Positions 14,527 through 58,355 of a stretch of DNA of 64,000 nt are shown in pieces. The stretch lies in the IMG/VR virus record IMGVR_UViG_3300030107_002709, positions 68,964 through 132,963 of that record; one strand, 5' to 3'. This DNA comes from a virus. How positions within the stretch are numbered: position 1 is the stretch's first letter; every line of letters begins with the position of its first letter. Below the pieces are notes generated by a model. It searched no databases, had not been told where the DNA came from, and saw only the letters and a program-made list of their open reading frames with translations. Both the position numbers and the translations under genes were made by a program.

Positions 14527-14617
14527 TTTCTTTTAATCCCCTTTAAATGTTTATGAGTGGTTATTTCAATTCAGTGCAGATCATTTTATATGAAATCTAA
14601 TGTTGATGGTTTTTGGT

Positions 14618-14827
14618 TTACCAACCAAGGGCGGCCATCATGCCCATACTTGTTGTTACTTCTGCAGTAACATCGTCTCTTCGAGCAAATTCTATGCCCC
14701 CAGGAGTTGCTCCGTCATGGAGAACAAGGGTCATTTTCGTAGTATCTACGGTCAATTCTCCAAGAGCTCCAGTAAATGTTGACTGTTGTACTGTAGTACC
14801 TCGTCTCAACTGTACCTGCTTAGTCAT
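14618..14827 (-). CDS. Stand-alone Mtd N-terminal-like domain protein (69 aa)
   Basis: QVQLRRGTT......GALGELTVDT....V.HDG..PGG is the Mtd_N / tail-fibre N-terminal motif; GAGG RBS and own late promoter. Confidence 0.8.
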   Translation of the reverse strand: MTKQVQLRRGTTVQQSTFTGALGELTVDTTKMTLVLHDGATPGGIEFARRDDVTAEVTTSMGMMAALGW

Positions 14828-14854
14828 AGCTATCCCTCGAATTTATGCTTCTTT

Positions 14855-14862
14855 TATTTATA
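14855..14862 (-). promoter_or_regulatory. T4 late promoter TATAAATA
   Basis: Perfect consensus 27 nt upstream of the 69-aa gene. Confidence 0.75.
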
Positions 14863-14878
14863 GAAGTAAAATCTTCAG

Positions 14879-20800: not shown

Positions 20801-23800
20801 AAGAGCAGTAAATAGTGATCCAGATCCAACCCAATCCCTAGTTCTAATAGTATTACCAATACCACTTAGATCACCAAGTGATGTGTCTTCACCAAACTCA
20901 GTAGAAGTCTTACTCTCTACAGATCCACCAGCACTGAATAATGAACCACCAGTAGTAGGATCTCTGAATACAACAGAATCTGCACCAATACCTGATGTCT
21001 GAAGTGTTCCTGTTAGAGGATATACTGTAGATGTATGTACAGTTAAACCATAATCCTCTTCACCTTGTTGGATGTTAAGGTCGCCATACTCACCAAATAC
21101 TGTTGCATTATCAACGATGTTACCTTCATCATCAACAGAGAATACATTAATGGAAGACTCGTTGTAATCGAAGGTTACCGATTCAGCAGCACCACCGATG
21201 GTAGGTAAGTTATAGTAACCAACATAACTCCATGCATATCTGTAAGTGTTACCGATATATGCAGGTGCAGTAAAGATATCAAATAGTGCAGTATCTTCAG
21301 TAGGTTGATAACCAACACACTCAGCAGCACCACCTATTGAGTATAGAGAACCTTCACCAATCTGACCCCAGATAGGAATGAATCTAACATCACCAGATTC
21401 TTCTTGTGTCTTCTCATCCCCTACCTGTGGGAATGTACCATAAGGTTTCGTCTCATAGGTGAGTGGTAATTCATCAATCTCTGCCTGAGTCCATCTTGCT
21501 CTTGTTAGACTTAGGTTAAGTGATCCGAATGGAGTAGCAGTAGATGTGAATATAATCTGTCCCTGATCATACTCTCCACCATACTGAGGTTCTGCTACAG
21601 AACCATAGTCATCAACTACAGTTACAGAATCAACTATTAATCCATTATCTTCTGTTCCATATGGAATAGTTGATGATTCGTTGTATGCCCATGATATAGA
21701 TTCTGCAACTCCATTAAGAGTGAACAATCCACCTGTACCTGGAGGTGCATTCCATACAAAGCTATAGGTGTTACCAATGTATGCTGGTGCAGTGTAGATA
21801 TCAAATAGTGTTGTAGCATCACCAAGTTCTGTCGTGCTAACACATTCACTAGCTCCACCAGCACTGAATAGTGATCCACCTTGTGTAGGATCTCTGAATA
21901 CAGTAGCACTTGGAGAAGTACCAGATGTCTGGAGTGTTCCTGTAAGTGGGAGAACTGTGCTAGTCCAGAATACCCAACCATAATCCTCTTCACCACCAGA
22001 CTGAGGTGCAGTAATATCTGTTCTATTATCAAAGACAGTAGCAGCATCTGTTATAAGACCACTATCATCAGTAGTGAATACAACGATAGAATTCTCATTG
22101 TAATCATATGTTATGGACTCAGCTGCACCACCGATAGTTGGTACTGACGCATAACCAGTGTAATTCCAGCAGAAGCTATAGGTGTTACCTATACTTGCAG
22201 GTGAAGTATAGATATCGAATAGTGTTGTAGAATCTCCAAGTTCTGTTGTAGATACACATTCTGCAGCACCACCCACAGTTGGTATACTACCACTACCAGC
22301 AGGTGCTCTCCATACAAATCTATATGTGTTACCAATCCATTCAGGTGCAGTGAATATATCAATAGATCCTGTAAGAGGATATACTGTCTCACCATAGATT
22401 ACTGAACCATAATCATTCTCTGCTTCTTGTGGAAGTGCTACACTACCATCATCAAAATGATCAGTTAGATAATTTGTAGCATCTGTTACTAATCCTATAT
22501 CCTCAGTAGTGAAGGTAACAATAGAAGACTCGTTATAATCGAATGTTACAGACTCGGCAGCTCCACCGACTCTGGACATAGCACCAGAACCAGATTCACT
22601 GAAGGTAGCAGTTGCAACCATGCTACCAGCATAGTATCTACCACCAACTATCTGGAATATACCAGTTGTATTTGGTTCTACAGTTACAGATTCAGAAGCA
22701 CCACCAACTGAGAATAGAGATCCAGAACCAGTTTGACCCCAGACAGGAATGAATCGAAGATGACCTGCTTCTTCTTGTGTCTTCTCATCCCCTACCTGTG
22801 GGAATGTACCATATGGTTTGGTAGTATATTCTGGATTAAGTTCATCAATCTGTGCCTGAGTCCACAATTCTCTTGTGAGACTGAAGGTGAATGTTCCCTG
22901 TGCAGAATTAGCAGTAGAAGTGTAAGTAACTAAACCATAATTCTCTTCACCACCATACTGAACTTCTGTAACGTCACCAAGATCAACATCAGTAGTAGCA
23001 GCATCTATTACAAGACCACTATCTTCACTACTAAATGGTACAACTGTACTATCACTATAATCAAATACAACTTTCTCAACTCCACCACCAATTCTTGATA
23101 TAGAACCAGATCCAATCTCTCTAAAGATAACATATTCAGTAGCAGCACCACTAAGATCTCCTAATGAAGTATCTTCACCAAGCTCAGTAGTACTCTTACT
23201 CTCTACAGCACCAAGAGCAGTGAATATGGATACAGGATCTGCAATGTATCTTCTCTGGAAGGAATAAGTCTCACCAAAGAACTGTAGATTGGTGATGCTA
23301 TATGATCCAACTAGAGGATATGCAACAGAACTATAAAGAACAGAACCATAATCATCTTCACCCTCTTGTATATCAGCAACATTACCTTGATCAACTACTA
23401 CTGCTGCATCTGTTATCAGACCATTATCATCTGTTGAGTATGGAACGATAGATGATTCATTGTAATCGAAGGTGACTTTTTCAGCTCCACCACCAATTCT
23501 GGATATAGCACCAGATCCAATCTCTCTAAATGTTGCTTGAAGGTTAGTATATGCACCAGACCAAGTAAACAGTGCAATATCTTCAACTGGTTGATATCCA
23601 ACTGCCTCGGAAGCTCCTCCCATACTGAAGAGGTTACCACTCTGTACGAATCCATGACCCCAAGTGAATGAATAGGTATCAAAGTTATGACCTTCGGTAT
23701 CAGAAAGACCTGGATTAGTTGGATCGAAATAATTCTCTGGAGTTGAATCATTAATAACTTTAGGATCAGTCCTGATAGTAAGTCCACCCATTGAGGTTGC

Positions 23801-38069: not shown

Positions 38070-41000
38070 TTATACTTGTCTAACTACAGTTCCTGCAGTT
38101 TCAGTTGTTAGACCTGAAGGTTGAATACTATCTGAACTACCGTAATCAACGATAAAACGATCAGATAATTTTGAACTATAAGCGATACGGAACTTACCGA
38201 CTTGTATCACACCTGTTGCATCGAATGCAGCAGTAGTTGATACCATAACATTAGAGTCAGTCCAATCAAAATCACTGTCTAATATTGTTGCGGAAAGAAC
38301 TGCCGTTGTTGAAGTACCCATACCGATAGTAGGAGCATTGGTAGGAGTTGTTAACCTAACTGCACCAGTCATTGATAATGTATTATCAAGCTCAATCTGT
38401 TTGATTGAATGGGTCAACGATGTAGTTGTTCCCATTGCAGACTGTGTAATAGAATGTGGTATAGTCAAATGTATTTCTGTTGCTCCAACAGAAACCTTAT
38501 TATCCCGAATTAGTTGTTGAGTAACTTTAACTTGATCACTCTGAGAAGATGCTGCAGCAACACTATGAGTAAACTCATATGCTAACTGTGTTGCTTCCCC
38601 AACCAATGATGTAGTATTTAGATCACTAAGACCAGTTATAGTGTCTTCAAATTTACGGATGTATTTGGTATCGAACTGTCTAGTCTTCTTGATGATATCA
38701 TAACCACGAGAGACGTTAACAATAGGAGCAGCAGTATATCCACTACCACCAGATTCTAAAATAACATCAATAACATTACCACCATCAACAATAACATGTG
38801 CTTTAGCACCACCACCATTTAGATCAACTGGTTCAAATGTTAATACTGGTGGTGTATCATAATTATGAGCTTGTGGATTAGAACCAAGAACAGTTTTATT
38901 CCAATTCAATGATGTTACAGTATCTCCTGTAATAACTGCTTTAATATCAAGACCTTCTCCTTTAGTATCACCATTATAATTGCTAACAGAGATAACACCT
39001 ACGTTATCACCTATTTGCGTATCTTCAACATGACTCAATGATTTAGATTCTCTAGGAGTTAATTTGACTGTTCTATAATCAGTCTCACCATCGATCTTAA
39101 TATGATCACCAGGTTCTAATGAGGTTATAGTAGGTTTGACCCTATCATACAACCAAGATACACTATCCTTCCTAAGAATTCTACCACCATCAACATCATT
39201 ATATGTAACTGCTGTGGTAAGAGCAGATAAATCAACCTCAGTATAAGATGCAGTCTGAAGATCAGTATTTGCAGCAATTCTTAGAGGTTTGGTAAGATCA
39301 ATCTTAGGATTCTGAGCAATGAGAGTAACATCCCATCCACTAGCAGTTTGGTTATACTTCCTAACCATACCAATAGTTGTATACACGTCAGGTGTTGGGA
39401 AAGAGTTATCTGTAAATTGATAAACTACTGCACCATCTCTTACAGCTGAAATGAAAGTAGCATATTCTGCAGAACCACCAGTAACTGTAATAGTTACTTC
39501 ATTAAAGAAACGATCTGGTTCTACATTAAATGCATCTAATAACTGATCAATAGAAGTACCTGTTAATAGAACTATACCAACACTCTGACCTTTCTTTAAA
39601 GCTTGACTGAATGTAATACTAGACTCATTTATAGTATATGCAGTATTCCTCTTCTGTAATATCCCATCAATATAAACAAAAGCAAATCTATCATCATCAA
39701 CAACTACTACATCACCAGTCTTTTCATCTCTCATAATGAATGGTCCAGTAATAGATCCATTAAAGTTATCTTCTTGTAAACTCATCCTCACATAACCACC
39801 AATATTATGTGCAAAGAACTTATCTACAGCAAGAGGTTCTTGAACAGTTAATGTATTCAGATTCTGTTTCCACTTAGGTGCTTCTGAAAATAGAATTCTA
39901 TCAGGATCACTAGCACCAGCAGATCTCTTGATATAATAAGAATTCAATCTAGGGAACGTCTCATCATACTTAGCATTCTGGAAGATACCATTAATACCAA
40001 CTATAAGATTATGCTCAACCTCAGTTTTTACTGGTGTATTATCAGTATAATATAACTCAAACTCTTTATTTTCATTGTTGAAATAATCTGGTAGAGACTT
40101 AACTACAGTACTACCATTTAATATAGACTCAACATTCAAGAACAGAGAATTTAAAGCAGATACCACAGTATCACACTCTGTGAATACATTATCCTTAGCA
40201 AGGATGTTTATATTAGTTAATGTTCTTAAAGTAGTCCAGTTACCAGTTCTTTGATTATTATCTTCAACCTTAGTGAATAAGTTTGGACCCTTATTAATAG
40301 TTTTAGTAACTATTTGAATGTAACTATTCAATGCAGATTCTACTTCAGCACAAGTTGTTACGTAAGGACCATTAGGATCAGCAAGGACAGTAGCATCTTC
40401 ATAAGGAACAATAGTAGTATATGTGCCAGTTGGAAGATTGTTCTTCATTGCCTCAACCATAAGTTGAGTTGCTTTTGTGTAAGCAGCAATACTCTCTTCT
40501 TTCTGATCTACTATATGATTAAGTTTATTCTTGTAATAATATCTCTCGCCAAAATCAACAACATTCCAGTTACCACCATATCTTATATGGTATACCATTG
40601 CATCTATAAGATACTCAGTATCTCGTTGACACTTATCTTCATTAGGTATTACCAAGCTTGGATATGTTGCTTTTGTCCAACCAATAGTCTCTTCTGAAAT
40701 ATACTTCTTATTTCCTTCAATGAGCTTAGCAGCATCCATAAACTTACCATTATTAATTCTACTAAATGAGAAGGTCATCTCATCAATATTATTGATAGTG
40801 GAATAAACAGTTGTAGTTGCTCCAATGCCCACGTTTAGTACACCTGTACCAGTAACAGTAACAGGACCATAATTAGTGGTTCCACTATTATTAACAGTTG
40901 TACTAATATTCTGAGCTGGGTATGCAATGTTTGCTGCTTTGGAAACTTTAATCTGTGTAGAACTTAGTATCTCAGTAACTGTAGTACCTTCATCAAATTG

Positions 41001-44000
41001 ATTACCACTACTTACATTCATTCCTACACATATACCTAAAGTAGAAGGAAGTGTAACAACATCCTGTCCTTGAGATACGGTACAGTTCTTAACTGATATA
41101 TCCCAATTCCTTGCTGCAGCAATACACAAGTTCATAGTATATTTGTATATCTCAACAGCAGAAGCTTCTACAGTTGTCTCGTTGAAATACTCTGTTGCTG
41201 CATGATGAGAAGCACTATTACCACCAAATCTAAGATCGTGTTCGTAAGCATCTAAAATTAATCCAACATCTCTAACACACTTAGATTCTTTAGTATTCCA
41301 AGTTAAGTTAGGATACTTAGATTTACCATATCCAACTGCTTCTTCTTGGATGAAATTCCTATTAAAACGCAATTGATTAGCAGCATCAATCCATGTACCT
41401 TCTTTTTGGAAGATAGGTCTAATCTTTTTCAAATACTGAAGATTCTTGGAAGCTTCCTTAAATTGGAATAATCTTCCAATAAACTTAGTTGCTGAAATTG
41501 TATTATTACCTTCTTGTCTAGTACCAAATGGTGCTGCAGCAAAAGTAATCTTATCACCAGATACAGTATAAGCAGTCTCTGGCTCTTGTAATACTGCATC
41601 TAATGTTATGGTTAAAGCCATAGCATTATATGGAGTTATTGGATTGTTAGTAGCAGCATCAACAATAGTAAATTCTCTTGTACCAGAGATATTACCATAC
41701 TGATCAAAAGTACCATCAAATGCTGGAGTGAGTTTAATCTCTTTAGCAATTAATCCAGATGTATCACTTGCTTTCTCTGTGAGAGATCCATTACCTCTTA
41801 ATACATTAATATCCTTAGATAAGTTTACAATAGTTTGATGATATCTTTTACTATCAACAATACTTGCATTATTACTATCCTTATCCCAAAGCTTAAGTGT
41901 TGAAACTTGAGTAGTCTTAGAATTATTACTTACCTTTACATCTACCTTCGCATCTATATTAAGCTCACCAAACATCTTAAATCCAGCTGGATGAACTGAG
42001 TCCTTAATAAGATCTCTCCAGTCTTCTATTTGTGTCTTAGACTCGATAACATAAGAATAATCCTGATAGAATTTATTATCTGCTATCTTGTGAGTTCTTA
42101 CACCAACTTTACCTTTATCAGAAGTATAAGTACCAAGATTATCATAATACGATCTTAGATCAGTAGAAAACTCTGCCTTCTGAACAGAAACTATTGTGCC
42201 AGTTGAATTACTGGCACTACCAGTAAGAGTTTGACCTACAATAAATTCACCTTTAGTTACAGATACCTTAAGAATATTAGATCCAATTCTCCATCCACCA
42301 TTAGTAACATTACCCTCTGCAAGTCCAGAGGTTACCTTTTCTCCACTTAAGAAATCATCTGTTGTGTCTAAAATAATAACATCACTTGCCTTATGCTTTC
42401 TTAATATTGAAGTATCATTCCAAATTCCAGATCCATTAAATTCAAGTTGTACATTCTTTGGAGATCCTATAGAAGAACCCAAAGCAAATATTCTAATATC
42501 ACCTTCAACAACCTTAAGCTCTGGTTTGTATGTGTAATTCTTTCCTTTGTTTGTTACAATAACATTTGCTATTCTGTTATCAGCAGTTTTTAAAACATCA
42601 AACCTTGCTTCGGATCCATCACCATCAACTACAACAACTTTTGGTTTAGAGTAATTGAATCCAGCTTTGTTGATTGTAACACCAACAATATTCTTTTCTA
42701 CAGGATCCCATTGTGCAGTAACATCAGCAGTTCTACTGCTATCTAATTCTGCTCCTAATACACCAGGAACTTTTCTGTAACCAGAACCAAGATTAGATAC
42801 CTCAACTTCAGCAATACCACCAGTTGCACCTTTAGATTTCGTAGTATACTTGATATTCCCAGTTCCATACCATTCAGGATTTTCTGTTAACTCATAGACA
42901 AACCTATCAGTTGTAACAAATGATACTTTAACTCCTGTACCAGTAGACTGGGTAGAAGATGTAAGTGCATCAGAAATTAATTTCTGCCCTTGTAATGGAT
43001 CATTGATAAGCTCAATATAATTGTTATTATCAACAATACTTGTAGTTGGACCAATTCTTATTTGCTTAGTTCCATCTACCATTGTTCTCACTACAGACTT
43101 ATAGTAATACCTTTGATAAGATCTAGGTACTCTCTTAGTCAATATACCATTAAGATCAACATCACCAATTCTAGGACCATATCCAAACTTCACATATGAG
43201 TAAGAACCTGCAGTACCAGGAGTACCAATATTAACAACTTCTGGTGCAATAATATTATCATTCTGACTAGGAGATATAATAAACTCAGATTCACCATTTG
43301 TGTAATGACTTAGATCAAATCTATATTGATAATACTCTTGTATCTTAAGGTTGGGTGATATTTCATATGGACCAGAAACAGATGAAGATATCTTTGTTAC
43401 AATCTTATAATCTGTAACAATATCAATATCAATTAATTTCTTAGGTTCACTCTCATCAAACAGTGTAGCTTGATCTGTAATCTTATATGGAGTAAAGTCT
43501 CCATTCGCAAAGAATCCTTGATTGTGTTCTACAATCAGTTTGTTATTATCATATGAAATGATTGTAGGATCTAATGATGTACCTGTAACAGGAAGCAATT
43601 CACCAACAGTGAATCTATAATTAGATCCATATAATGTAACAACTTCATTGTCGAAATGATCTATATCACTAGTATTATTCTGTGCCCTTGTGACAGTTAC
43701 TGATTTGGTAGACTCTGATATAGAGTTTACCTTAACAATCTCATCACCTATTGATAGAAGATCATTTTTTGATAACCCACTAATAGAATCTAATTTTAAT
43801 ACAGTCTCACCAGTAGCGAATCCAATATGATCGACTACTAAACGTAGACGTTGAGTATTAGTAGAAGCACCTGATCTGTTTAATGATGTATCCTCAACAG
43901 TAAGAATATCACCCTTTCTATAACTAGATCCTTTAGTTGTAATAACAACAGATTCTACATATCCCAATCCTGTGCTATCAACATTCTTCACAACTATAGT

Positions 44001-47000
44001 TGCTTTTGCATTATTGGAGTCGCCGACTTTCCCTAAATCAGTTCTAGCAGCATTCTGATCAACAAATATAAGCTCTACATCTTCATATGTGTTTGCTGCA
44101 TAATCAGCACCAGAATTAACCAAATCAGATCTTCCCAATCCAGGATCATCAATCTGTGTTGATAATGTTAGTGATTTGATATCAATCTCTTGTGTTGCTC
44201 CTAATTGAACATAGTAAGTTGTTGTTGAGATAGAATCATCAGGATCTATTTCAACATATACAACATCTCCTACACCAAGTGCATGATCACCATCAGTTTC
44301 AACTAATGCAATATTTGTATTAACAATGAATGGTATTAAACCTGTACTTAAACTTGTAGTTGATAAGATCTCTGCACCAACTGTGTTTAGTAGATTGTTA
44401 CTTCTAAGAAAGTATCCTGCCTGTTGTGCAAAAGTACCAGTCAACACTTTAAGCTTAACAGAATTTCTCTTATCAGTAGTTTCAATTACTTCACCTGTTG
44501 CTATTACAGAATCGGATTTGTTAACAGTACCATTAGTTAACTCTACAATCGCACCAGCAGTGAATGTAGCATTTGTATTGAGGATGATATTAATACTAAG
44601 TGTTGTGGAGTCAAATAAACCTGTTTGATCAAATGTTCCCGTAACATCTTCTAAAACTAAGATCTTACCATCAAGAACATCACCAACAACTTTACCAGAT
44701 ACTCCAGATGATGTTTGTGTTATGGTATCTCCACCAAAGACATAACAATTTTCCGTAATCTGAACTTTAGCTACTCTCTTTGCATCCGTAGCTTGTAGTT
44801 CTTCTACAGTATTTCCTTTAACTGCTGAAATGGTTCCAGCAGCATCTACACCACCAGTACCAGTATCATCTAGAACAATAGATGAACCAACTTTAAAATT
44901 ATCAGATGAGCTGTATACCTGAAATGCGTCTAAACTACCAGAAGAAACGTCTTTAACAACTCCCCTAGTCTTACGACCATTATCAGGTGTATCGACCCCA
45001 CGGAGGCGTACAGCGTCCAATGGGAGATCATTCTGTGTTTGATTCTGATCGTAGTTAGCAGCAAGAGGCAAAGAATAGAAATTCTCACCAATCAGATATG
45101 GAAATTCTGGATCACCTAGATTATCAAATGTCGCAAAATATGCGTATGTTCCATTCGGATATTCTGGTGTTACACAATATCTTCCGTTATTCCTATCTAC
45201 AGTTCCGTATCTATCTGCGTAATAATAATCTTGTATGAATGATCCTAGCGGATATGTAACAAGAGATGGTCCATTTGGTCTAGTTCCATACTTCAAATAT
45301 CCTGATTGCATCCTCACAACGCTACTAGAAGAATCTACAGGATCAGAATATCCGTAAGGACCGTATATAGGGTTACCATCATACGCAAATCCAATGATAG
45401 GAGAATGATTAGTTCCCGTATCATTTCCTCTAAGTGTTGGTGGATATGATACAGTACCATAATTTTGGAACCCTCTATCATTAAGATGAGAGATTCCCCA
45501 TTCAGAATCTAATATCTCTTCTACAAATCTATTCTTAATCCACTCATATATTGAAGAACTTGCAAGTGCACCAGAACCACTTGGTATGACTTGGATTACA
45601 ACATTTCCTTCACTATAGAAAGATCCACCATTTACTTTAGTGCATCCAGATATTTGTCCAGTAGCAGATACTTGAGCAGTATATTCTGCATATCTACCTC
45701 TTCCTAGAGCATCAACTATTCTAATAGTTGGAGGAGCAGAATAATATTCACCAGGATCAGTAACTACTAAGCTTGTTATTGCTCCTTGTGTGATAACAGG
45801 TGTTAATACCGCATTCCTACCAGATACTATTTCAACAATAGGAGCAGCAGTATACGAACCAGCATCATCTATTCTAACAGACTCAACTACAGTACCAGAC
45901 AACACAGCAGTTGCCTTATATGGTTCACTATTAACAAGTACATAAGGAGGTCTGGAATAACCACTTCCTTGTGTAGTAACATCTATCTTGGTAAGACCAC
46001 CATAAAACACGCCATCTTGATGCTTATGGGTATATACTAGAGATCCATCTACTAGAATACCAAAATCTTTTCTTGGAGTCTTGTATACCTCAGTAGTTGT
46101 GATAGCATTCTTTCTAATAGTTCTTAAGAAGGATTGCTCGACAACTGTCTTTGTAGCAGGTATTGTCTGATTAAAGAACATAGTCCTATTAACAGGTACA
46201 CCACTAGTACAGATATAATAATTGTTATCATCACTAAAGATTCTCTGTATACCAGGTATAACATCATTTACAGATGCTTGTGTTCTGGGATCTCCTGATA
46301 GTGCAGTATAATTAGCAGCATCATTAGGTAACCATCTAACAGTACCATCAGTTTTCTTAATTTTAGGATCAACTGTATCAAATCCAGAATCTTCTACTAC
46401 TAAAGGTTCACCCTCAATACCATATGGTGTTGAAGTAGTAGGTGATAAATTATAAACTACACCAAGTGCTATAAATTCAACATTATTTCCTTTAACTCTA
46501 TTATCACTATAAACTGATGATCCTTTATTATGAGTTCTAGTTAATTTCCTATTCTTAATTTTAAATTGACGTATAGTTTTATTGGAATACTCAATAACCT
46601 CACCATCTATAAATATCCTCCCTTCTTTCTCCCATCCAAAAGTAGAATCAACATCTATAACATCTCCTGTTTGATCAGCAGAATCAATTGCTTTTTTAAG
46701 AGTAGTCTTGCTTGCTATAGTAAACTGATTGTTAATTGTAGATGGAGCAAGAATCAATTCCCATACAACAGCACCATCAACAGGTTCTAATTTCTTTATG
46801 TTATCTACTACTGCTGAAGCATAGTTATCTCCAGTCTCAGTAATAACCTTACCAATTAAATCTCTAGGATTACCACTTGTAACAACTACCTTTAAAGCAT
46901 GGACATTAATCCAATCAGACTCTGATGATTTAAGTGTAGTATCCTTTGGAAAATAAACATCATTATCTTCACTACTTACAAGAGAATTGAAGATAAACTG

Positions 47001-47609
47001 AATAGAACGCTTAGTACCCTTTGATTTGTAGAAAGAAGAGATGTTCTTTATAAGGGTTCTCTTATCGATCTCACCACGCAAGTACTTCTCAGGTATACCA
47101 GCAAGATATTCTGACTCAAAGCTCTGTATAAGGGCATACAAGAACAGATTACTAAGGTTTTCTACCTTAACATCTGCTGCATGTGTACCTGCAGTAGTAG
47201 AAACGTATGTACTGAGCTTATAAAGATCTCCAAGTTCAGTATTACCACTTACACCCCTAGCAACACCATTAAACTGATTAGATGTCTTTGATGCATAGAA
47301 GAATATCTCATCATCAATTTTAGCAAGTCCACTATCAGGGAACCCTTCAGTCGATAGTACATTTATACTAGTATCTGAGATCCCAGTTATACCAACGGTT
47401 TTCGAGGACTGTGTTAGAACCTCTTTATCGTAATAATTAATATCACGATATTTTGTTAAATTTGTAATAATGTCTAAAACACCACCACTAAGCTCTTGTT
47501 GAGCATAGTAAGATTTGAGGAACTTAACGAAGTACTCATAGTCCTCTACGATGAATCCAGGTAACTGACTTTCAATCAGTGCCGAGATATTTTTAGACTT
47601 TACGTTCAT
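38070..47609 (-). CDS. gp7: Baseplate wedge initiator (T4 gp7-like, 3179 aa)
   Basis: IESQLP.FI...Y..FV.FL..YY, FY.SKGT, YQDYSYVI.S and HPAGFKMFG motifs; internal HSPIIGFAYDGNPIYGPYG (YHYH-like) segment; lies between gp6 and gp8. Confidence 0.88.
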   Translation of the reverse strand: MNVKSKNISALIESQLPGFIVEDYEYFVKFLKSYYAQQELSGGVLDIITNLTKYRDINYYDKEVLTQSSKTVGITGISDTSINVLSTEGFPDSGLAKIDDEIFFYASKTSNQFNGVARGVSGNTELGDLYKLSTYVSTTAGTHAADVKVENLSNLFLYALIQSFESEYLAGIPEKYLRGEIDKRTLIKNISSFYKSKGTKRSIQFIFNSLVSSEDNDVYFPKDTTLKSSESDWINVHALKVVVTSGNPRDLIGKVITETGDNYASAVVDNIKKLEPVDGAVVWELILAPSTINNQFTIASKTTLKKAIDSADQTGDVIDVDSTFGWEKEGRIFIDGEVIEYSNKTIRQFKIKNRKLTRTHNKGSSVYSDNRVKGNNVEFIALGVVYNLSPTTSTPYGIEGEPLVVEDSGFDTVDPKIKKTDGTVRWLPNDAANYTALSGDPRTQASVNDVIPGIQRIFSDDNNYYICTSGVPVNRTMFFNQTIPATKTVVEQSFLRTIRKNAITTTEVYKTPRKDFGILVDGSLVYTHKHQDGVFYGGLTKIDVTTQGSGYSRPPYVLVNSEPYKATAVLSGTVVESVRIDDAGSYTAAPIVEIVSGRNAVLTPVITQGAITSLVVTDPGEYYSAPPTIRIVDALGRGRYAEYTAQVSATGQISGCTKVNGGSFYSEGNVVIQVIPSGSGALASSSIYEWIKNRFVEEILDSEWGISHLNDRGFQNYGTVSYPPTLRGNDTGTNHSPIIGFAYDGNPIYGPYGYSDPVDSSSSVVRMQSGYLKYGTRPNGPSLVTYPLGSFIQDYYYADRYGTVDRNNGRYCVTPEYPNGTYAYFATFDNLGDPEFPYLIGENFYSLPLAANYDQNQTQNDLPLDAVRLRGVDTPDNGRKTRGVVKDVSSGSLDAFQVYSSSDNFKVGSSIVLDDTGTGGVDAAGTISAVKGNTVEELQATDAKRVAKVQITENCYVFGGDTITQTSSGVSGKVVGDVLDGKILVLEDVTGTFDQTGLFDSTTLSINIILNTNATFTAGAIVELTNGTVNKSDSVIATGEVIETTDKRNSVKLKVLTGTFAQQAGYFLRSNNLLNTVGAEILSTTSLSTGLIPFIVNTNIALVETDGDHALGVGDVVYVEIDPDDSISTTTYYVQLGATQEIDIKSLTLSTQIDDPGLGRSDLVNSGADYAANTYEDVELIFVDQNAARTDLGKVGDSNNAKATIVVKNVDSTGLGYVESVVITTKGSSYRKGDILTVEDTSLNRSGASTNTQRLRLVVDHIGFATGETVLKLDSISGLSKNDLLSIGDEIVKVNSISESTKSVTVTRAQNNTSDIDHFDNEVVTLYGSNYRFTVGELLPVTGTSLDPTIISYDNNKLIVEHNQGFFANGDFTPYKITDQATLFDESEPKKLIDIDIVTDYKIVTKISSSVSGPYEISPNLKIQEYYQYRFDLSHYTNGESEFIISPSQNDNIIAPEVVNIGTPGTAGSYSYVKFGYGPRIGDVDLNGILTKRVPRSYQRYYYKSVVRTMVDGTKQIRIGPTTSIVDNNNYIELINDPLQGQKLISDALTSSTQSTGTGVKVSFVTTDRFVYELTENPEWYGTGNIKYTTKSKGATGGIAEVEVSNLGSGYRKVPGVLGAELDSSRTADVTAQWDPVEKNIVGVTINKAGFNYSKPKVVVVDGDGSEARFDVLKTADNRIANVIVTNKGKNYTYKPELKVVEGDIRIFALGSSIGSPKNVQLEFNGSGIWNDTSILRKHKASDVIILDTTDDFLSGEKVTSGLAEGNVTNGGWRIGSNILKVSVTKGEFIVGQTLTGSASNSTGTIVSVQKAEFSTDLRSYYDNLGTYTSDKGKVGVRTHKIADNKFYQDYSYVIESKTQIEDWRDLIKDSVHPAGFKMFGELNIDAKVDVKVSNNSKTTQVSTLKLWDKDSNNASIVDSKRYHQTIVNLSKDINVLRGNGSLTEKASDTSGLIAKEIKLTPAFDGTFDQYGNISGTREFTIVDAATNNPITPYNAMALTITLDAVLQEPETAYTVSGDKITFAAAPFGTRQEGNNTISATKFIGRLFQFKEASKNLQYLKKIRPIFQKEGTWIDAANQLRFNRNFIQEEAVGYGKSKYPNLTWNTKESKCVRDVGLILDAYEHDLRFGGNSASHHAATEYFNETTVEASAVEIYKYTMNLCIAAARNWDISVKNCTVSQGQDVVTLPSTLGICVGMNVSSGNQFDEGTTVTEILSSTQIKVSKAANIAYPAQNISTTVNNSGTTNYGPVTVTGTGVLNVGIGATTTVYSTINNIDEMTFSFSRINNGKFMDAAKLIEGNKKYISEETIGWTKATYPSLVIPNEDKCQRDTEYLIDAMVYHIRYGGNWNVVDFGERYYYKNKLNHIVDQKEESIAAYTKATQLMVEAMKNNLPTGTYTTIVPYEDATVLADPNGPYVTTCAEVESALNSYIQIVTKTINKGPNLFTKVEDNNQRTGNWTTLRTLTNINILAKDNVFTECDTVVSALNSLFLNVESILNGSTVVKSLPDYFNNENKEFELYYTDNTPVKTEVEHNLIVGINGIFQNAKYDETFPRLNSYYIKRSAGASDPDRILFSEAPKWKQNLNTLTVQEPLAVDKFFAHNIGGYVRMSLQEDNFNGSITGPFIMRDEKTGDVVVVDDDRFAFVYIDGILQKRNTAYTINESSITFSQALKKGQSVGIVLLTGTSIDQLLDAFNVEPDRFFNEVTITVTGGSAEYATFISAVRDGAVVYQFTDNSFPTPDVYTTIGMVRKYNQTASGWDVTLIAQNPKIDLTKPLRIAANTDLQTASYTEVDLSALTTAVTYNDVDGGRILRKDSVSWLYDRVKPTITSLEPGDHIKIDGETDYRTVKLTPRESKSLSHVEDTQIGDNVGVISVSNYNGDTKGEGLDIKAVITGDTVTSLNWNKTVLGSNPQAHNYDTPPVLTFEPVDLNGGGAKAHVIVDGGNVIDVILESGGSGYTAAPIVNVSRGYDIIKKTRQFDTKYIRKFEDTITGLSDLNTTSLVGEATQLAYEFTHSVAAASSQSDQVKVTQQLIRDNKVSVGATEIHLTIPHSITQSAMGTTTSLTHSIKQIELDNTLSMTGAVRLTTPTNAPTIGMGTSTTAVLSATILDSDFDWTDSNVMVSTTAAFDATGVIQVGKFRIAYSSKLSDRFIVDYGSSDSIQPSGLTTETAGTVVRQV

Positions 47610-52514: not shown

Positions 52515-52602
52515 GGTCGAAGTAATCACAGAATTGGTCAAAGTTGTTGAGTGCCTCTTCATATGTCCAAGAGGATGGACTTTTTTCGGGATTTTTTGTC
52601 AC
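52393..52602 (-). CDS. Hypothetical protein
   Basis: ORF track; first ORF after the late promoter. Confidence 0.5.
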   Translation of the reverse strand: MTKNPEKSPSSWTYEEALNNFDQFCDYFDHAASARYQSTQSDQTPREPSLRATPKSESIGDTYIDVQTT

Positions 52603-54157: not shown

Positions 54158-54462
54158 TAATTGAAAATGGCGTTAGTTTGGACTTGAGAGACAAGAACGG
54201 ATTCTTGTCTGAATTGTTTTTTGTATGCTGCTGCTATGCAGTTCATAGAGAGCATATGTTCATCAAGTTCAGAATCTGCGATCTCAATGTAAAAGATTTT
54301 AGTCTTTTCAAATTGACCTTTCCAGATGCCTTCACCGTCAATGAATGTGCCATACTCGAAATGTGGCATGATTTCACGTCTTATGAAATCGTTCATCATA
54401 TGGTCAGTAACAGTGCCCTCGTTGGGGATGTCTCTGCCCATTGTGAGTTCAAGTCTAATCAT
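54157..54462 (-). CDS. DUF3574-like protein
   Basis: EL..GR.IP..G.V, G.G.WKG..E.TKI and YK.QF.QESVL motifs. Confidence 0.75.
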   Translation of the reverse strand: MIRLELTMGRDIPNEGTVTDHMMNDFIRREIMPHFEYGTFIDGEGIWKGQFEKTKIFYIEIADSELDEHMLSMNCIAAAYKKQFRQESVLVSQVQTNAIFN

Positions 54463-54475
54463 GGAAACTTGTTGA

Positions 54476-54748
54476 CTACTCCTTAATAATATCATGACCA
54501 AAGGATCTTTCAACCTTTGGTGGGACACTTGTTACATTGTCCACGAGCTCTTCCAATAACTCCTCATCAAATGTACATGATATATCATCACAAATTTCTT
54601 GCCGTGATGCGTATTCATTGAGGTCACGTTGGATCGTATCAAATACAAATCGCTCCATGTCCTTCCAGTCCATACCATCACAAATGATTTGGGTGTACTG
54701 CTCAATGAGTTCTTCCCATTGTTCAGTTGTTAGTTCAGGTGCTTTCAT
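54476..54748 (-). CDS. Small acidic early protein
   Basis: ORF track; paralogous to 55972-56217. Confidence 0.7.
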   Translation of the reverse strand: MKAPELTTEQWEELIEQYTQIICDGMDWKDMERFVFDTIQRDLNEYASRQEICDDISCTFDEELLEELVDNVTSVPPKVERSFGHDIIKE

Positions 54749-54754
54749 GGAAAT

Positions 54755-54907
54755 AAAAAAGAAAAGTGTGGAGTCTTCAAAACTCTTATTTTTATAACGG
54801 ATGAGTTACCGTGAGTACAAGAGGTCTCCAAACATAAAGAGCAGTTTTCCACAGCGTGTACCAAAGGACATCTGATTGTTGCTCACCCCTGCCTTGCGTC
54901 TCCACAT
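54755..54907 (-). ncRNA. Candidate structured small RNA (about 145 nt)
   Basis: Upstream -10 box; 5' TGTGGAG pairs with 3' CTCCACA followed by a U-run; nested AGGGGT/ACCTCT and GAGCA/TGCTC helices. Confidence 0.5.
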
Positions 54908-54921
54908 TTATAATATAGCAA

Positions 54922-54944
54922 TAAAAAACCCCCTTGAGGGGGTT
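54922..54944 (-). terminator. Intrinsic terminator
   Basis: AACCCCC-TTGA-GGGGGTT with a minus-strand T-run, directly after ORF 54951-55226. Confidence 0.8.
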
Positions 54945-54950
54945 GGGTGT

Positions 54951-55226
54951 TCACTTTGCAAACTGTCTCACATATGTGTTGAGTTTGGCGAAGTCCTGAA
55001 GTAGCATTGCTATTTCATAATTGTGAATTGCCCAACGTGCTTTAATGTCCTGGACATAGCGTGATGGGGTGATGAGTTTAGCAGATGAGGGACGGCGTGG
55101 TGCTGATACCTTGACTGCCTTCACTTTTCTCACTGTTGCAGTGACCTTCTTAGGGGTCTTGACTGGTGTTACCTTACGTGCTGCAACCTTACGGGTGCGA
55201 GTCTTGCGAGGTGTTGCAACGGTCAT
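54951..55226 (-). CDS. Small protein with Lys/Arg-rich, histone-H1-like N-terminus
   Basis: ORF track; composition. Confidence 0.7.
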   Translation of the reverse strand: MTVATPRKTRTRKVAARKVTPVKTPKKVTATVRKVKAVKVSAPRRPSSAKLITPSRYVQDIKARWAIHNYEIAMLLQDFAKLNTYVRQFAK

Positions 55227-55409
55227 GCGTGTTATTCATTTGAACTCCCTTATTGTACATGATATTGGTATCATGTTACGAGAATCGTTACACATTGAAA
55301 CAATACAAAAAAATCAGGCCGCCCGTGGTCAGTTGGGAGACTGTCCCGATGTCTGTTGTAATCCGTTACAATTGGATGATTTGGGGTCAAAATCGTGTAT
55401 TATAAGGAT

Positions 55410-55589
55410 ATGAAATTCACCGATCAGTTTTCAGTTGCTCTCGACTCGCAAGAGTACGATCAACTTCAGGAGATGTTCTCCTTCTGTGCTCAGTTCGATT
55501 TCACCGAGCATCACGATTCTGAAATCTTTGACCGTCTCTGGGATAAGGTTTTAGACGCAGATCACAAAGTCCTTTCATCCGATTCTTAA
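55410..55589 (+). CDS. Small acidic early protein (start MKFTDQ)
   Basis: TATTAT (55398-55403) 6 nt before the ATG. Confidence 0.65.
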   Translation: MKFTDQFSVALDSQEYDQLQEMFSFCAQFDFTEHHDSEIFDRLWDKVLDADHKVLSSDS

Positions 55590-55590
55590 A

Positions 55591-55767
55591 ATGAGCACAC
55601 ATCCTCACACTCTTGAAAATCTTGCAGAGTCAATCTATGAAGAGATTGTCGCTGCTAACTTCAGAGACCTTGAGAGGTCAGATGAAGAACTGGTCTATGC
55701 TATCGCATGTGACCGTGCTCAGATCGAGTACAATGACCTAGTTCACGATTACATCAACGGATTATGA
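55591..55767 (+). CDS. Small acidic protein (58 aa, MSTHPHTLENLAESIYEE...)
   Basis: Hand-translated; fills the operon gap. Confidence 0.6.
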   Translation: MSTHPHTLENLAESIYEEIVAANFRDLERSDEELVYAIACDRAQIEYNDLVHDYINGL

Positions 55768-55979
55768 AATATCCTTTGCGTGAGATCGACCCACAATGGT
55801 CATTCGAGTACATGAAGTGCGACCCCACAGATTTCTTGGTCGCACTTTATGAGGATTACTGTTTACATCACGGTCTGCCTCTGGTATCTGCTGATGAACA
55901 GGACATCTACCACATGCCTCCAAAACAGAGAGCATGGATTCATTCATTTATTGTAATTTGGGATTCACTCCATGCCTGA
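55764..55979 (+). CDS. Small hypothetical protein
   Basis: ORF track; ATGA coupling. Confidence 0.65.
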   Translation: MKYPLREIDPQWSFEYMKCDPTDFLVALYEDYCLHHGLPLVSADEQDIYHMPPKQRAWIHSFIVIWDSLHA

Positions 55980-56217
55980 GTACAACGACTGCACCTATGA
56001 CCAATTGGTCGAAGACTATGCAGATATCGTCATTGACCGTATGGACTTCCAAGAACTCTATGAGTTTGCAAGGGAGACAGTCATTGACCGATTAGAAAAC
56101 ATGACTGAGAGGGGATTAATCGATCACATCAACGAGGTCGAATGTGATGAGACCGCAGATGAAATCATCTCCACTCATTACGGAATCAACCCACCAGACT
56201 GTTACATCACTGACTGA
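55972..56217 (+). CDS. Small acidic early protein
   Basis: ORF track; paralogue of 54476-54748. Confidence 0.7.
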   Translation: MPEYNDCTYDQLVEDYADIVIDRMDFQELYEFARETVIDRLENMTERGLIDHINEVECDETADEIISTHYGINPPDCYITD

Positions 56218-56375
56218 TGAAAATTGAACTCACAGAGAATCAGGTCAGCTTGATTCTCTACTGTCTTGAGGGGTACGTTCAAGGCAATGACGATCACGAT
56301 CTATGTGACGAGGTTGACGAGATCTTCGAGGTCTTAGAGAACATAGAGTTTTCCACAACCCCTGTGGAAAACTAA
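56217..56375 (+). CDS. Small acidic protein (52 aa, ends FSTTPVEN)
   Basis: Hand-translated; TGATG coupling; followed by a terminator. Confidence 0.6.
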   Translation: MKIELTENQVSLILYCLEGYVQGNDDHDLCDEVDEIFEVLENIEFSTTPVEN

Positions 56376-56382
56376 TCCTGAT

Positions 56383-56406
56383 ACCCCACTTCGAGTGGGG
56401 TTTCTT
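56383..56406 (+). terminator. Intrinsic terminator
   Basis: ACCCCACT-TCG-AGTGGGGT-TTCTT. Confidence 0.8.
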
Positions 56407-56616
56407 CATGTTCGATTTCTATAGTGTCATACCCTATAGGTAGGATATCTCTATAGTACTTCAAAAGCTCTTCCGTCTGCTCCTTTAGCTCTAAATCGAA
56501 ATCCATTAGACATCTCCAATAGGGTATTACTAATTATAACACGAAAGTGTTAAATTTACAATTATTAAAAAAACTGACTTTCTCAAATTAATGAAAAAGT
56601 CAGTTTTCTGCTTTTC

Positions 56617-56847
56617 TTAAACTTCTTCACAAAGAGAATAGAAGTATTCCTGTGGAAAACTCTTATTGTATGCTGTGGAAAAGTTGTTCAAATGTCTTGA
56701 AGTTGTCCTGGACCATTTCTTCTCTGTCTTGCAGTATCCTATCTCTGGGACATATGCTGCGACTGGTGTTTCATAAGAGAAGAAAACCTCTGTGCCATTC
56801 TTGTAGATGACTTTAGACTGGTTTGATCCGAGTTGGCGAAGTTGCAT
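56617..56847 (-). CDS. Conserved phage early protein (start MQLRQLGSNQ)
   Basis: FFSYETPVAA and T.KKWS.TTSRH.N motifs; own promoter. Confidence 0.75.
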   Translation of the reverse strand: MQLRQLGSNQSKVIYKNGTEVFFSYETPVAAYVPEIGYCKTEKKWSRTTSRHLNNFSTAYNKSFPQEYFYSLCEEV

Positions 56848-56911
56848 TGAATGAACGTGCTTTGTTGACTCTCTTAATATAGTCCATCCTGGGCACAATG
56901 GGTGACAACGT

Positions 56912-56933
56912 GTGCCACTAAAAAAAGTGACCA
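56912..56933. promoter_or_regulatory. 22-bp palindromic early-promoter element, copy C
   Basis: GTGCCACTA-AAAA-AAGTGACCA; 30 bp upstream of minus-strand TATATT (56876-56881). Confidence 0.6.
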
Positions 56934-56968
56934 TTGCTGATCACTTTCTTGTCTGGTGTATTGTAATA

Positions 56969-57118
56969 TTATTGTTGTGAATAGTAATAATCTCCCTCAT
57001 CCTTGAACTTTCGGTCTCGTTTCTTCTTAGATCGTGATTTGTTCTGTACTTTTAACCCATATTGCTCCTCTACTTGGTCGATGTCGGTGTAACTGTCTAG
57101 TTTATAGTTCTTGGTCAT
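56969..57118 (-). CDS. Small hypothetical protein (49 aa)
   Basis: Hand-translated MTKNYKLDSY... Confidence 0.5.
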   Translation of the reverse strand: MTKNYKLDSYTDIDQVEEQYGLKVQNKSRSKKKRDRKFKDEGDYYYSQQ

Positions 57119-57143
57119 GAGTTCGTATTGACTACACTAATAT

Positions 57144-57389
57144 TTATTGGTCGCCTTTGATCAATTCTAGGGTATTATCCCTAATTGATGTATTAATATA
57201 GCGTCCAATGCTTTTATTTGTATCAATTAGTACTTTTTGTACTGTTTTTGCAAATTCTTCGATGTTTTTGCAATTATATTCATATTCTTTGTCAATATTG
57301 CCGTTAAATGTTACAAATACACGCTTTTCTTCACATTTTATGCGAAATACAGCACTTGAATCGATGTTTTCAAAGACTATTGGGGTCAT
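57144..57389 (-). CDS. KTSC-like domain protein
   Basis: SSAV..I......V.F......Y.Y and SIGRYIN..IR pattern. Confidence 0.6.
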   Translation of the reverse strand: MTPIVFENIDSSAVFRIKCEEKRVFVTFNGNIDKEYEYNCKNIEEFAKTVQKVLIDTNKSIGRYINTSIRDNTLELIKGDQ

Positions 57390-57401
57390 TTGCGTTAATG
57401 G

Positions 57402-57530
57402 TTAAAATGTGAAAGCTGAAAAACCCAAAATACTTAAAAAGTGAGTTTTTTGACTTTTTAAGAAATCACAAAAACTCAAAAAGACAGAAAAGTGCCTTTT
57501 ATCACATTTTGGGTTTCTCAGACTCTCCAT
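57402..57530 (-). ncRNA. Candidate structured RNA or leader (about 125 nt)
   Basis: 16-bp closing helix, 10-bp and 8-bp hairpins, 9-bp pseudoknot; mismatches resolve as G-U only on the minus strand; -10 box directly upstream. Confidence 0.55.
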
Positions 57531-57572
57531 AATGTAATAATACACGATTTCCGAGGAATTTGGTGGGTCTGT

Positions 57573-57594
57573 GTGCCACTTTGAGAACTGGAAC
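57573..57594. promoter_or_regulatory. 22-bp palindromic early-promoter element, copy D
   Basis: GTGCCACTT-TGAG-AACTGGAAC; 30 bp upstream of minus-strand TATTAT (57537-57542). Confidence 0.6.
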
Positions 57595-57779
57595 AACCTT
57601 GCTTGACTTTCGATCCCTTGCGGGCTTAGACAACAAGAACAGAGCACCTTACCTATATTTTTTTAATGATTTATAAAGTTTTCCACAATCCACAAATAAC
57701 CTGTGGAAAACCCAGTCATACCAATGTGCGGAAGGTTACTGAAGGATACTATCCATTGTATACTTTATGCATACTATGT

Positions 57780-57992
57780 TCATGCCTTAAAATACTTGTC
57801 TAATACAGTTATTTGATCCTCATAACGTGCTATTTTATCAAGCTCTTGTGCTATTGCTCCTGTTATGTCTGAATGTTCACCTATACCTACAGATGCATTC
57901 AAATATACTTCAATATTAGCACGACACATCTCTATCTCACCATGTGCATGTACTGTTAGTGCTTTCATTAATACTGCTCTTTGTGATGCCAT
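57780..57992 (-). CDS. Conserved small phage protein
   Basis: AN.EVYL...VGIGEH.DI..AI..ELD motif; GAGG RBS. Confidence 0.75.
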   Translation of the reverse strand: MASQRAVLMKALTVHAHGEIEMCRANIEVYLNASVGIGEHSDITGAIAQELDKIARYEDQITVLDKYFKA

Positions 57993-58088
57993 GATGATAA
58001 CCTCTTATTGTTTATATTATACCATATCTATGATCATTTGTCTTTATTCTTTCGTTTTGTTAATTGATTGTTATGTGTTATTGGTATT

Positions 58089-58355
58089 CTATCTTTCTTT
58101 CTTAAGGGCGTACCAGGTTTCTTCAAATCTTTCTTGATTTGTTTGAGCTTCTTTAAATGCTCTTTGATTGCATGACTGTCCATTGTTATTATTCCAGTGT
58201 TTGATTACACCTGCAACAATAAAACAATTAGTAGTGAGATAAGAAATGAAAATAATACTACGTATGATAGTAATGTAGTTGTCGTAGGGTTTAGTCTTCT
58301 CATCAGAGTAACTGCCCAATGCATATTTCCAGACATTAAACAGTTTCGATATCAT
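58089..58355 (-). CDS. Small membrane protein
   Basis: WKYALGS.SD.KT..YDN...IR and TN.FIVAGVI.HW motifs. Confidence 0.65.
   Translation of the reverse strand: MISKLFNVWKYALGSYSDEKTKPYDNYITIIRSIIFISYLTTNCFIVAGVIKHWNNNNGQSCNQRAFKEAQTNQERFEETWYALKKER

Follow-up and report, generated by a model that had tools for sequence, protein, structure and literature searches.

Could a T4-like cyanophage carry docking sites for DnaA, the replication initiator of its host, and what would such sites do? The question is raised by a 64,000-nucleotide (nt) stretch of viral DNA (hereafter, the window), positions 68,964 to 132,963 of the IMG/VR record IMGVR_UViG_3300030107_002709, in which the nonamer TTTTCCACA, a form of the cyanobacterial DnaA box, occurs in seven exact copies, all within 2.9 kb. 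Genes in the window include one for a baseplate wedge protein of the T4 gp6 type, others for 2OG-Fe(II) oxygenases and many small ones that belong to cyanophage families. The gp6 has at most 58.7% identity to that of any named phage and the top matches are all from cyanomyophages; judged from these genes, the source is an uncultured T4-like cyanomyophage. From their number, form, conservation and placement, we consider it probable that the seven nonamers are docking sites for host DnaA that have been maintained by selection.

Seven perfect boxes within 2.9 kb

The copies start at 54845, 56349 and 57679 on the plus strand and at 56363, 56651, 56674 and 57702 on the minus strand, and the whole record of 132,963 bases holds the same seven and none beyond. 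The expectation for the 64-kb window was 1.03 copies (standard deviation 0.89), and none of 100 dinucleotide-preserving shuffles reached seven. The control word, the nonamer reversed and not complemented, has two copies in the record. The nonamer ranks first among the 9-mers that occur four or more times inside 6 kb, and the remaining clustered 9-mers sit at 13-24 kb of the window, where a long repetitive coding stretch (13000-24000) holds many recurrent 9-mers. The excess is confined to the perfect form, since the loose consensus TTWTNCACA was found 10 times against 10.06 expected and sites with at most one mismatch 23 times against 24.3 expected; none of 16 one-mismatch sites lies between 54,000 and 58,500. 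The word common to the copies extends to about 11-13 nt, (A)GTTTTCCACA(G). A longer mobile repeat was considered and rejected, the copies agreeing over 11-13 nt only, with one pair at 89% over 19 nt. The T4 late-promoter word TATAAATA has six copies against 7.1 expected and none in the cluster.

These counts bear out the initial annotation, which had reported the seven copies at these positions and strands, had noticed no other in the window and had estimated far fewer than one by chance in 3 kb; the record-wide count is seven and the expectation 1.03 per 64 kb. It had also described two inverted pairs, 56349/56363 (boxes separated by 5 nt) and 57679/57702 (separated by 14 nt), a direct pair, 56651/56674 (23 nt start to start), and AT-rich tracts nearby, all of which were recovered: the segment 56528-56627 is 78% A+T, the joint highest 100-nt window of the record, and several others in the record are within 1-3% A+T of it. 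The genome-wide count against a background that it had proposed gave an excess of the perfect form over the shuffles and no similar density elsewhere in the record. The boxes and the features around them are as follows.

54845..54853, plus strand: DnaA box 1 (AGTTTTCCACAG), exact match, in an intergenic leader that separates a minus-strand terminator from the gene at 54476-54748
54927..54944, minus strand: terminator-like hairpin belonging to gene 54951-55226; on the minus strand it precedes box 1
56349..56371, unstranded: DnaA boxes 2 (plus) and 3 (minus), inverted pair, 5 nt between boxes
56383..56401, plus strand: terminator-like hairpin at a convergent junction, kept in the relative G001 (see below) with changes in the loop alone
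56507..56616, minus strand: AT-rich intergenic region, with box pair 2/3 on one side and pair 4/5 on the other
56651..56682, minus strand: DnaA boxes 4 and 5, tandem pair inside the 3' end of gene 56617-56934 (phrog_5643)
57679..57710, unstranded: DnaA boxes 6 (plus) and 7 (minus), inverted pair, 23 nt start to start

In the box region most genes are carried by the minus strand. Boxes 2/3 overlap the final nine codons of the small open reading frame (ORF) 56217-56375, just ahead of the terminator-like hairpin, and boxes 6/7 stand at the minus-strand upstream edge of a conserved cassette, between it and gene 57780-57992. The AT-rich intergenic region contains a hairpin (56570-56607) and a sigma-70-like site, TTGTAA-17-TATAAT (56561-56533). 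At most two boxes fall within 60 nt, and four fall within 334 nt (56349-56682); an oriC-like array of at least three boxes within about 300 bp was not found in the window.

The block around box 1 is unusual in its sequencing depth. An 86-nt segment (54814-54899) that contains the box has about ten times the contig depth of its flanks in a DNA run and two RNA runs, and all five differences of these contigs from the window lie at 54859-54868, which suggests a short element common to many co-occurring phage genomes. The roughly tenfold RNA depth is no sign of high expression of the block, because a similar excess of DNA matches it.

The boxes match those of marine picocyanobacteria

The nonamer TTTTCCACA is described as a species-specific cyanobacterial DnaA box, located in oriC beside dnaN, in the available part of PMC4674748, which also cites binding assays in Anabaena. 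All seven phage copies are exact to that form, as the initial annotation had held. Eleven genomes of the marine picocyanobacterial family carry 1-25 perfect boxes each. In one of them (G013), a segment of 125 nt holds five perfect boxes, spaced by 12 and 22 nt; it is situated 220-345 nt upstream of the dnaN ORF, which carries all three DnaN (beta-clamp) domains.

The flanking bases are also alike. Among 308 phage boxes the preceding base is G in 194 and the following base is G in 172 and A in 108, and among 23 host boxes, taken from nine hand-picked places with paired or clustered boxes, G precedes 13, G follows 13 and A follows six, so that, as far as these samples tell, phage and host flank preferences agree. 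An inverted pair of perfect boxes 44-45 nt apart is common to four picocyanobacterial genomes (L255, L256, L258 and L260) and may be a conserved DnaA-regulated host locus away from dnaN; the genes flanking it in L255 belong to the families DUF1818 and DUF2811.

Boxes persist while their surroundings change

The boxes were followed in G001, a 20.9-kb contig whose gp6 is 96% identical to that of the window and whose DNA over the region is 65-89% identical. Its boxes likewise number seven; they are confined to the first 3.3 kb, the remaining 17.6 kb being free of them, and the control word does not occur in the contig. Box 1 has kept its place and orientation, within a block (54815-54853) that shows no difference between the two phages, and boxes 6/7 have retained their 23-nt geometry around a 14-nt spacer that has diverged. 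At the site of pair 2/3, G001 lacks the small ORF and holds two tandem boxes 12 nt apart; thus, the boxes are conserved there and the inverted-pair hairpin is not. Instead of boxes 4/5 it has a tandem pair 21 nt apart in its copy of the next gene, where V-E-N is encoded twice. The coding boxes of the window read F-S-T and F-P-Q (boxes 4/5, in two different frames) and V-E-N, in differing frames and strands, which argues that the conserved entity is the DNA word and not a peptide.

Variation within populations is consistent with this pattern. Among the differences listed for the contigs of two DNA and two RNA runs, none of 40 substitutions and none of nine indels falls in any box, and the 14-nt spacer of pair 6/7 has three of the substitutions and four of the indels; the tally is of the differences listed, 50 more exist outside that list, and complete invariance of the boxes is not claimed. 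Variant contigs that continue past box 6 have a different spacer and then the reverse box again. Near-identical DNA of the locus was found in marine metagenomes from several studies, and the search of phage records for near-identical DNA gave a single match of 125 nt.

Of ten contigs with a high-identity gp6, only G001 spans the box region. Eight of the ten (92-98% identical over the gp6 segment; set L268-L276) stop before it, L272 and L273 no farther than 0.6 kb upstream of gene 6 and the remaining six at 3.8-5.5 kb, and L282 starts in gene 6. These contig ends probably reflect assembly breakage in a hypervariable small-gene region.

Clusters recur at one genomic position in cyanophages

Inverted pairs of the nonamer were found at no fewer than 122 IMG/VR loci, many with 33-41% G+C and three to seven boxes. 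A complete 182-kb genome has four of its six boxes within 660 nt, another record has seven of nine within 1 kb, a third has six of six within 1 kb, and three shorter phage contigs have seven boxes within 176-310 nt. The genes beside these clusters belong to cyanophage families; one neighbouring family has tblastn matches in 106 phage records, about 96 of them cyanophage-named and 10 marine or uncultured.

A sample chosen independently of the boxes was obtained from loci anchored on gp6, eight of 80 reaching at least 6.3 kb upstream of gene 6 and the other 72 being too short. The eight include G001 and two others with identical offsets that may be the same phage. Boxes are present at -5.2 to -8.1 kb from gene 6 in seven of the eight, six of which carry two or more there; in the window the boxes lie at -5.4 to -8.3 kb. 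Of 16 named isolates searched whole, five (Syn9, S-PM2, S-SM1, S-SM2 and Syn33) have at least two boxes within 60 nt, and the box triple of S-PM2 and the pair of Syn9 are about 8.0 and 6.1 kb upstream of gene 6, respectively. The box regions of these two genomes are at 19231-19264 (S-PM2) and 52565-52597 (Syn9). The feature is thus widespread and fixed in position, yet optional.

The initial annotation had proposed mapping of the boxes in relatives, and the outcome was divided: the same genomic position is used in several cyanomyophages, and the cluster is not present in 10 of the 16 named isolates. Because so many isolates are without it, the cluster is not an indispensable origin component of the group. 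No publication on DnaA-box clusters in cyanophages was found by title or abstract in a search that left most subscription journals outside.

Spacing of the boxes was profiled in 85 phage loci (30-45% G+C, crudely de-duplicated) together with the window. For neighbours in the same orientation up to 60 nt apart (n = 49), 22 spacings are 11-12 nt and 19 are 21-23 nt. The spacings of inverted pairs, the class that the scan selected for and which is hence biased, peak at 13-14, 23-24 and 34-35 nt. Steps of about 10.5 nt would put the sites on one face of the helix, as is expected of a cooperative DNA-binding protein, and the host array upstream of dnaN shows such steps too. The boxes are also depleted from ORFs, although the ORF models behind these figures are crude: ORFs of at least 60 amino acids (aa) cover 65% of bases and hold 39% of 224 boxes, and those of at least 80 aa cover 48% of bases and hold 19% of the boxes.

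A conserved cassette abuts boxes 6 and 7

Boxes 6/7 adjoin a conserved element with the following parts.

57559..57660, minus strand: cassette core, conserved non-coding, about 110 nt, beginning with a -10-like TATAGG at 57657-57652
57416..57542, minus strand: second -10-like hexamer, TATTAT (57542-57537), plus an AT-rich block; the hexamer column is conserved in the alignment
57144..57389, minus strand: 81-aa gene downstream of the cassette (phrog_4357)

Read along the minus strand, an A-rich tract ending in TATAGG is followed by the core, TATTAT, AT-rich imperfect inverted repeats (57416-57521) and the 81-aa gene, the counterparts of which in S-MbCM7 and S-PM2 are annotated as T4-GC 805. The core is 70-80% identical to unannotated DNA of S-CAM4, ACG-2014e/j and S-RIM32 and is single-copy in the record (nhmmer E value 1.2e-25; no second match at E up to 10). 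The element is common to 19 IMG/VR loci, in the alignment of which two invariant blocks were forced by the search pattern. A structured RNA was considered and rejected: RNAalifold on the 19 cores gave four invariant pairs at -0.41 kcal/mol and no covariation, and Rfam gave no match.

Boxes stand upstream of the cassette in seven of 21 aligned loci, always at the same edge. S-PM2 and Syn9 share the order of boxes, cassette and AT-rich repeats, and in S-PM2 a homologous gene follows; S-CAM4 has the cassette and no boxes. From the end of box 6 to the -10-like TATAGG is 21 nt in the window, in G001 and in L365, and the distance from box to hexamer is 18-28 nt (counted by hand) in three other box-bearing loci. 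If the TATAGG site is a promoter, boxes 6/7 would cover about -34 to -42 and -57 to -65 relative to its start. Transcripts from the two candidate promoters would begin near 57645 and 57530. At the second -10-like position, Syn9 and some relatives carry a complete site of the TTGACA-N17-TATAAT type. The AT-rich imperfect inverted repeat at 57416-57521 lies directly downstream of the candidate promoter and resembles an unwinding element in form only. RNA contigs from two studies both stop at 57519, where DNA contigs continue; this is a weak hint of expression. The contigs of the RNA runs cover only parts of the stretch, and the gaps in that cover carry no information.

Several minor features were noted at the cassette. 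The promoter-like word AAATCGTGTATTAT... occurs twice, once at 55390-55412, ahead of the operon 55395-56375 on the plus strand, and once in the opposite orientation at 57528-57550, where it coincides with the cassette's second -10-like hexamer; the two places may share an early-promoter motif. In two DNA runs, contigs connect 57490/57494 with 57701/57678 and so omit or replace some 183-210 nt of the core, and natural variants appear to differ in the segment 57490-57701. An 81-aa ORF that overlaps the cassette (57402-57647) is not conserved and is probably not a gene. In the S-PM2 RefSeq record (L378), tRNA genes are annotated over the box and cassette region at 19177-19333, where ARAGORN finds none, and the tRNA feature coordinates in that copy look misplaced.

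What the boxes may do

The explanation that we favour, with somewhat better than even confidence, is selected docking of host DnaA that acts at control points of small genes. The sites are found at a leader, a convergent terminator junction, one side of an AT-rich promoter region and the upstream edge of the cassette. Host DnaA would dock on these high-affinity sites during infection and, bound to paired sites on one helix face, would adjust how readily promoters open or how far transcription reads through. On the cassette, DnaA would occupy about -34 to -65 of the first promoter-like site, much like MotA at the R-loop-origin promoters of T4, and might license an origin transcript there. Early phage transcription would thereby be coupled to the condition of the host initiator, as might the first round of replication. 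The excess, the clustering, the match to the host box, the conservation, the recurrence, the phased spacing and the intergenic bias are observed; binding by DnaA, the promoter assignments and all functional consequences are inferred. Provided that DnaA does dock, gating of a promoter or of an R-loop-type origin falls a little short of an even chance, and pure titration and an oriC-style origin would each be unlikely as the role of the sites. A local role is favoured over pure titration because of the positional conservation and the intergenic bias, and an oriC-style DnaA-dependent origin is disfavoured because of the dispersed layout and the optional boxes. The initial annotation had offered an origin or a decoy. 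Its premise stood, the boxes being of host type, kept and recurrent, and neither role was singled out; from the anatomy of the locus, DnaA as a regulator of phage promoters would fit at least as well as either.

Several observations weigh against selected docking or limit it. At the level of the word itself, perfect boxes are no commoner than the reversed control in most host-family genomes, and pairs of the nonamer occur in many non-cyanobacterial phyla, so the motif fits the host and does not by itself name it. Within the locus, the boxes are dispersed over 2.9 kb and four of the seven overlap ORFs, and boxes 4/5, two of the seven, are not conserved in the closest relative G001. The feature is also dispensable in many relatives: ten of the 16 named isolates (ACG-2014f_Syn7803C7, S-WAM2, Sf-CH1b, S-MbCM7, S-RSM4, P-SSM2, P-SSM4, P-HM2, P-RSM4 and S-CAM4) have no two boxes within 1 kb and carry zero to four scattered copies, P-HM1 has two boxes only, about 890 nt apart, and 14 of the 21 cassette loci are without a box. 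The consensus promoter scan called neither candidate cassette promoter, and box-less cassettes are also without a good -35 element on visual reading of the alignment; for these two reasons, and because the expression hint is weak, the promoter-gating geometry is something that we infer. The record is, moreover, only about 70% complete by CheckV estimate.

Two other uses of host DnaA were weighed against action at control points. The boxes could form a sink of the datA kind, without local cis-function, that absorbs host DnaA increasingly as phage genomes multiply, with the outcome that initiation on the host chromosome is stopped or that DnaA-regulated host genes are shifted. Seven perfect sites of the high-affinity type with no one-mismatch sites among them would suit a sink, and, given the box numbers of the host-family genomes, a few phage copies would be enough to outnumber the host's own boxes. 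G001 has kept a total of seven while positions turned over and tandem pairs came to lie in different genes, which fits selection on dose more than on location. A pure sink would not require three boxes held at exactly the same place in G001, clusters at the same genomic position across deeply diverged phages, or the same cassette being abutted in S-PM2, Syn9 and this phage, and it fits poorly with the preference of the boxes for intergenic DNA and with the many relatives that have no cluster. We therefore consider a sink without local function unlikely, titration being plausible as a side effect or a main effect. About as unlikely is an oriC-style origin, at which DnaA would oligomerise and melt AT-rich DNA, and the phage helicase would be loaded for theta-type initiation. 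Here the placement of pairs 2/3 and 4/5 is suggestive, as they flank 56372-56650, which holds the joint most AT-rich 100-nt window; the contigs with seven boxes in 176-310 nt have an oriC-like spacing of 11-12 nt; and a single theta origin was predicted for Syn9, according to the available part of the review PMC2984593. On the other side, the window has no dense array, and many relatives with the same type of replication module lack the cluster. T4-type replisomes start at R-loops or D-loops without an initiator, as far as the available part of PMC3016281 describes them. The GC skew that the initial annotation had suggested was computed and proved uninformative: the cumulative skew is monotonic across the record, with its extremes at the record ends, no strand-composition switch at the site and no origin signal, and in T4-like genomes skew follows transcription and is weak evidence on origins. 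The largest gene-free gaps of the record, by a crude ORF model, are not in the cluster region.

It is also conceivable, and in our judgement quite improbable, that the resemblance to DnaA boxes is coincidental and that another binder, a phage protein or a host factor, or RNA hairpins explain the repeats. Two of the pairs could form hairpins, one of which was scored terminator-like, and most neighbouring small ORFs are of unknown function. Against this, single, tandem and inverted arrangements interchange between relatives, so that hairpins are not conserved, and the 9-mer, its flanks and the 11-12 and 21-23-nt spacing match the host array upstream of dnaN. Pfam searches of 19 local ORFs returned domains of unknown function only and no recognisable DNA-binding domain, and Rfam gave no match at the gathering threshold over the window and none at E up to 1 over 54300-58300. 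A phage-encoded DnaA-like binder was rejected, the DnaA C-terminal domain family reaching 14.6 bits in the whole record against a cut-off of 31.5. Chance, or a neutral repeat without function, is hardly credible. With 38% G+C the phage is AT-rich, and T-rich words are frequent in it, but no shuffle reached seven copies, every record searched has few copies of the control word, the boxes have been kept where their spacer has diverged, and the cluster occupies one genomic position across genera.

Relation to known systems

The nearest likeness to action of DnaA at control points is found in the T4 origins oriF (uvsY) and oriG, each with an activator-dependent promoter and an AT-rich downstream unwinding element and primed by an R-loop, according to the available part of PMC3016281. 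The initial annotation had contrasted T4, which initiates from promoter-driven R-loops, with DnaA-dependent systems, and this agrees with that part of the review, in which such origins are described and DnaA is not mentioned. In a like manner, the cassette has -10-type sites followed by an AT-rich block, with boxes approximately where a MotA box would be. The putative activator differs in being the host initiator rather than a phage protein, and here the promoters are predicted and the boxes optional. Cyanomyophages are without motA and asiA (PMC2984593). By analogy, DnaA might have replaced MotA at an R-loop-type origin in a subset of T4-like cyanophages, where it would license the origin transcript; we hold this to be rather unlikely. 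If true, the first round of phage replication would be coupled to the state of host DnaA and hence to cell cycle, energy and light.

Compared with cyanobacterial oriC, the phage has the identical 9-mer, similar flanks and the same 11-12 and 21-23-nt spacing as the five-box array upstream of dnaN. In contrast, it is a lytic phage, the boxes are not beside dnaN or dnaA, and the pairs are spread over 2.9 kb at gene junctions and in genes and do not form one block by an unwinding element. Clusters of DnaA boxes outside oriC occur in Escherichia coli (datA) and in Bacillus subtilis. Like these, the seven perfect boxes in 2.9 kb bring high-affinity sites together outside the chromosomal origin and could lower free DnaA; unlike them, the cluster is carried by a virus, and its position beside a conserved cassette argues for a local role. 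Host DnaA is used by several replicons, among them P1 at oriR, lambda through stimulation of pR, and pSC101. These also have host DnaA boxes on a mobile replicon, for an origin or for origin-activating transcription, whereas they are temperate phages or plasmids and depend on the replisome of the host. The T4-like lytic type encodes its own replisome and uses recombination-dependent replication, according to the available parts of PMC3016281 and PMC2984593. Clusters of DnaA boxes beyond oriC, like boxes carried by plasmids and temperate phages, are known kinds, to which a conserved host-type array in T4-like lytic phages adds a further form.

Among the main primary producers of the ocean, a large share is lost to T4-like cyanophages. 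Apart from the theta origin predicted for Syn9, cyanomyophage origins were unknown as of 2010, according to the available part of the review PMC2984593. A host-initiator array at a fixed position provides a testable handle on where and how these phages start replication, and the cluster is present in the cultured models S-PM2 and Syn9. The array suggests a direct molecular link from host replication control to phage development. If this is true, it would be an unusual case of a T4-type lytic phage with its own replisome using the host initiator.

Other features of the window

No tRNA genes were found across the window. Two DUF7326 (phrog_1352) paralogues lie on opposite strands inside the cluster region, at 54476-54748 and 55972-56217. 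A 3179-aa ORF at 38070-47609 adjoins the baseplate genes and probably encodes a giant structural or fibre protein.

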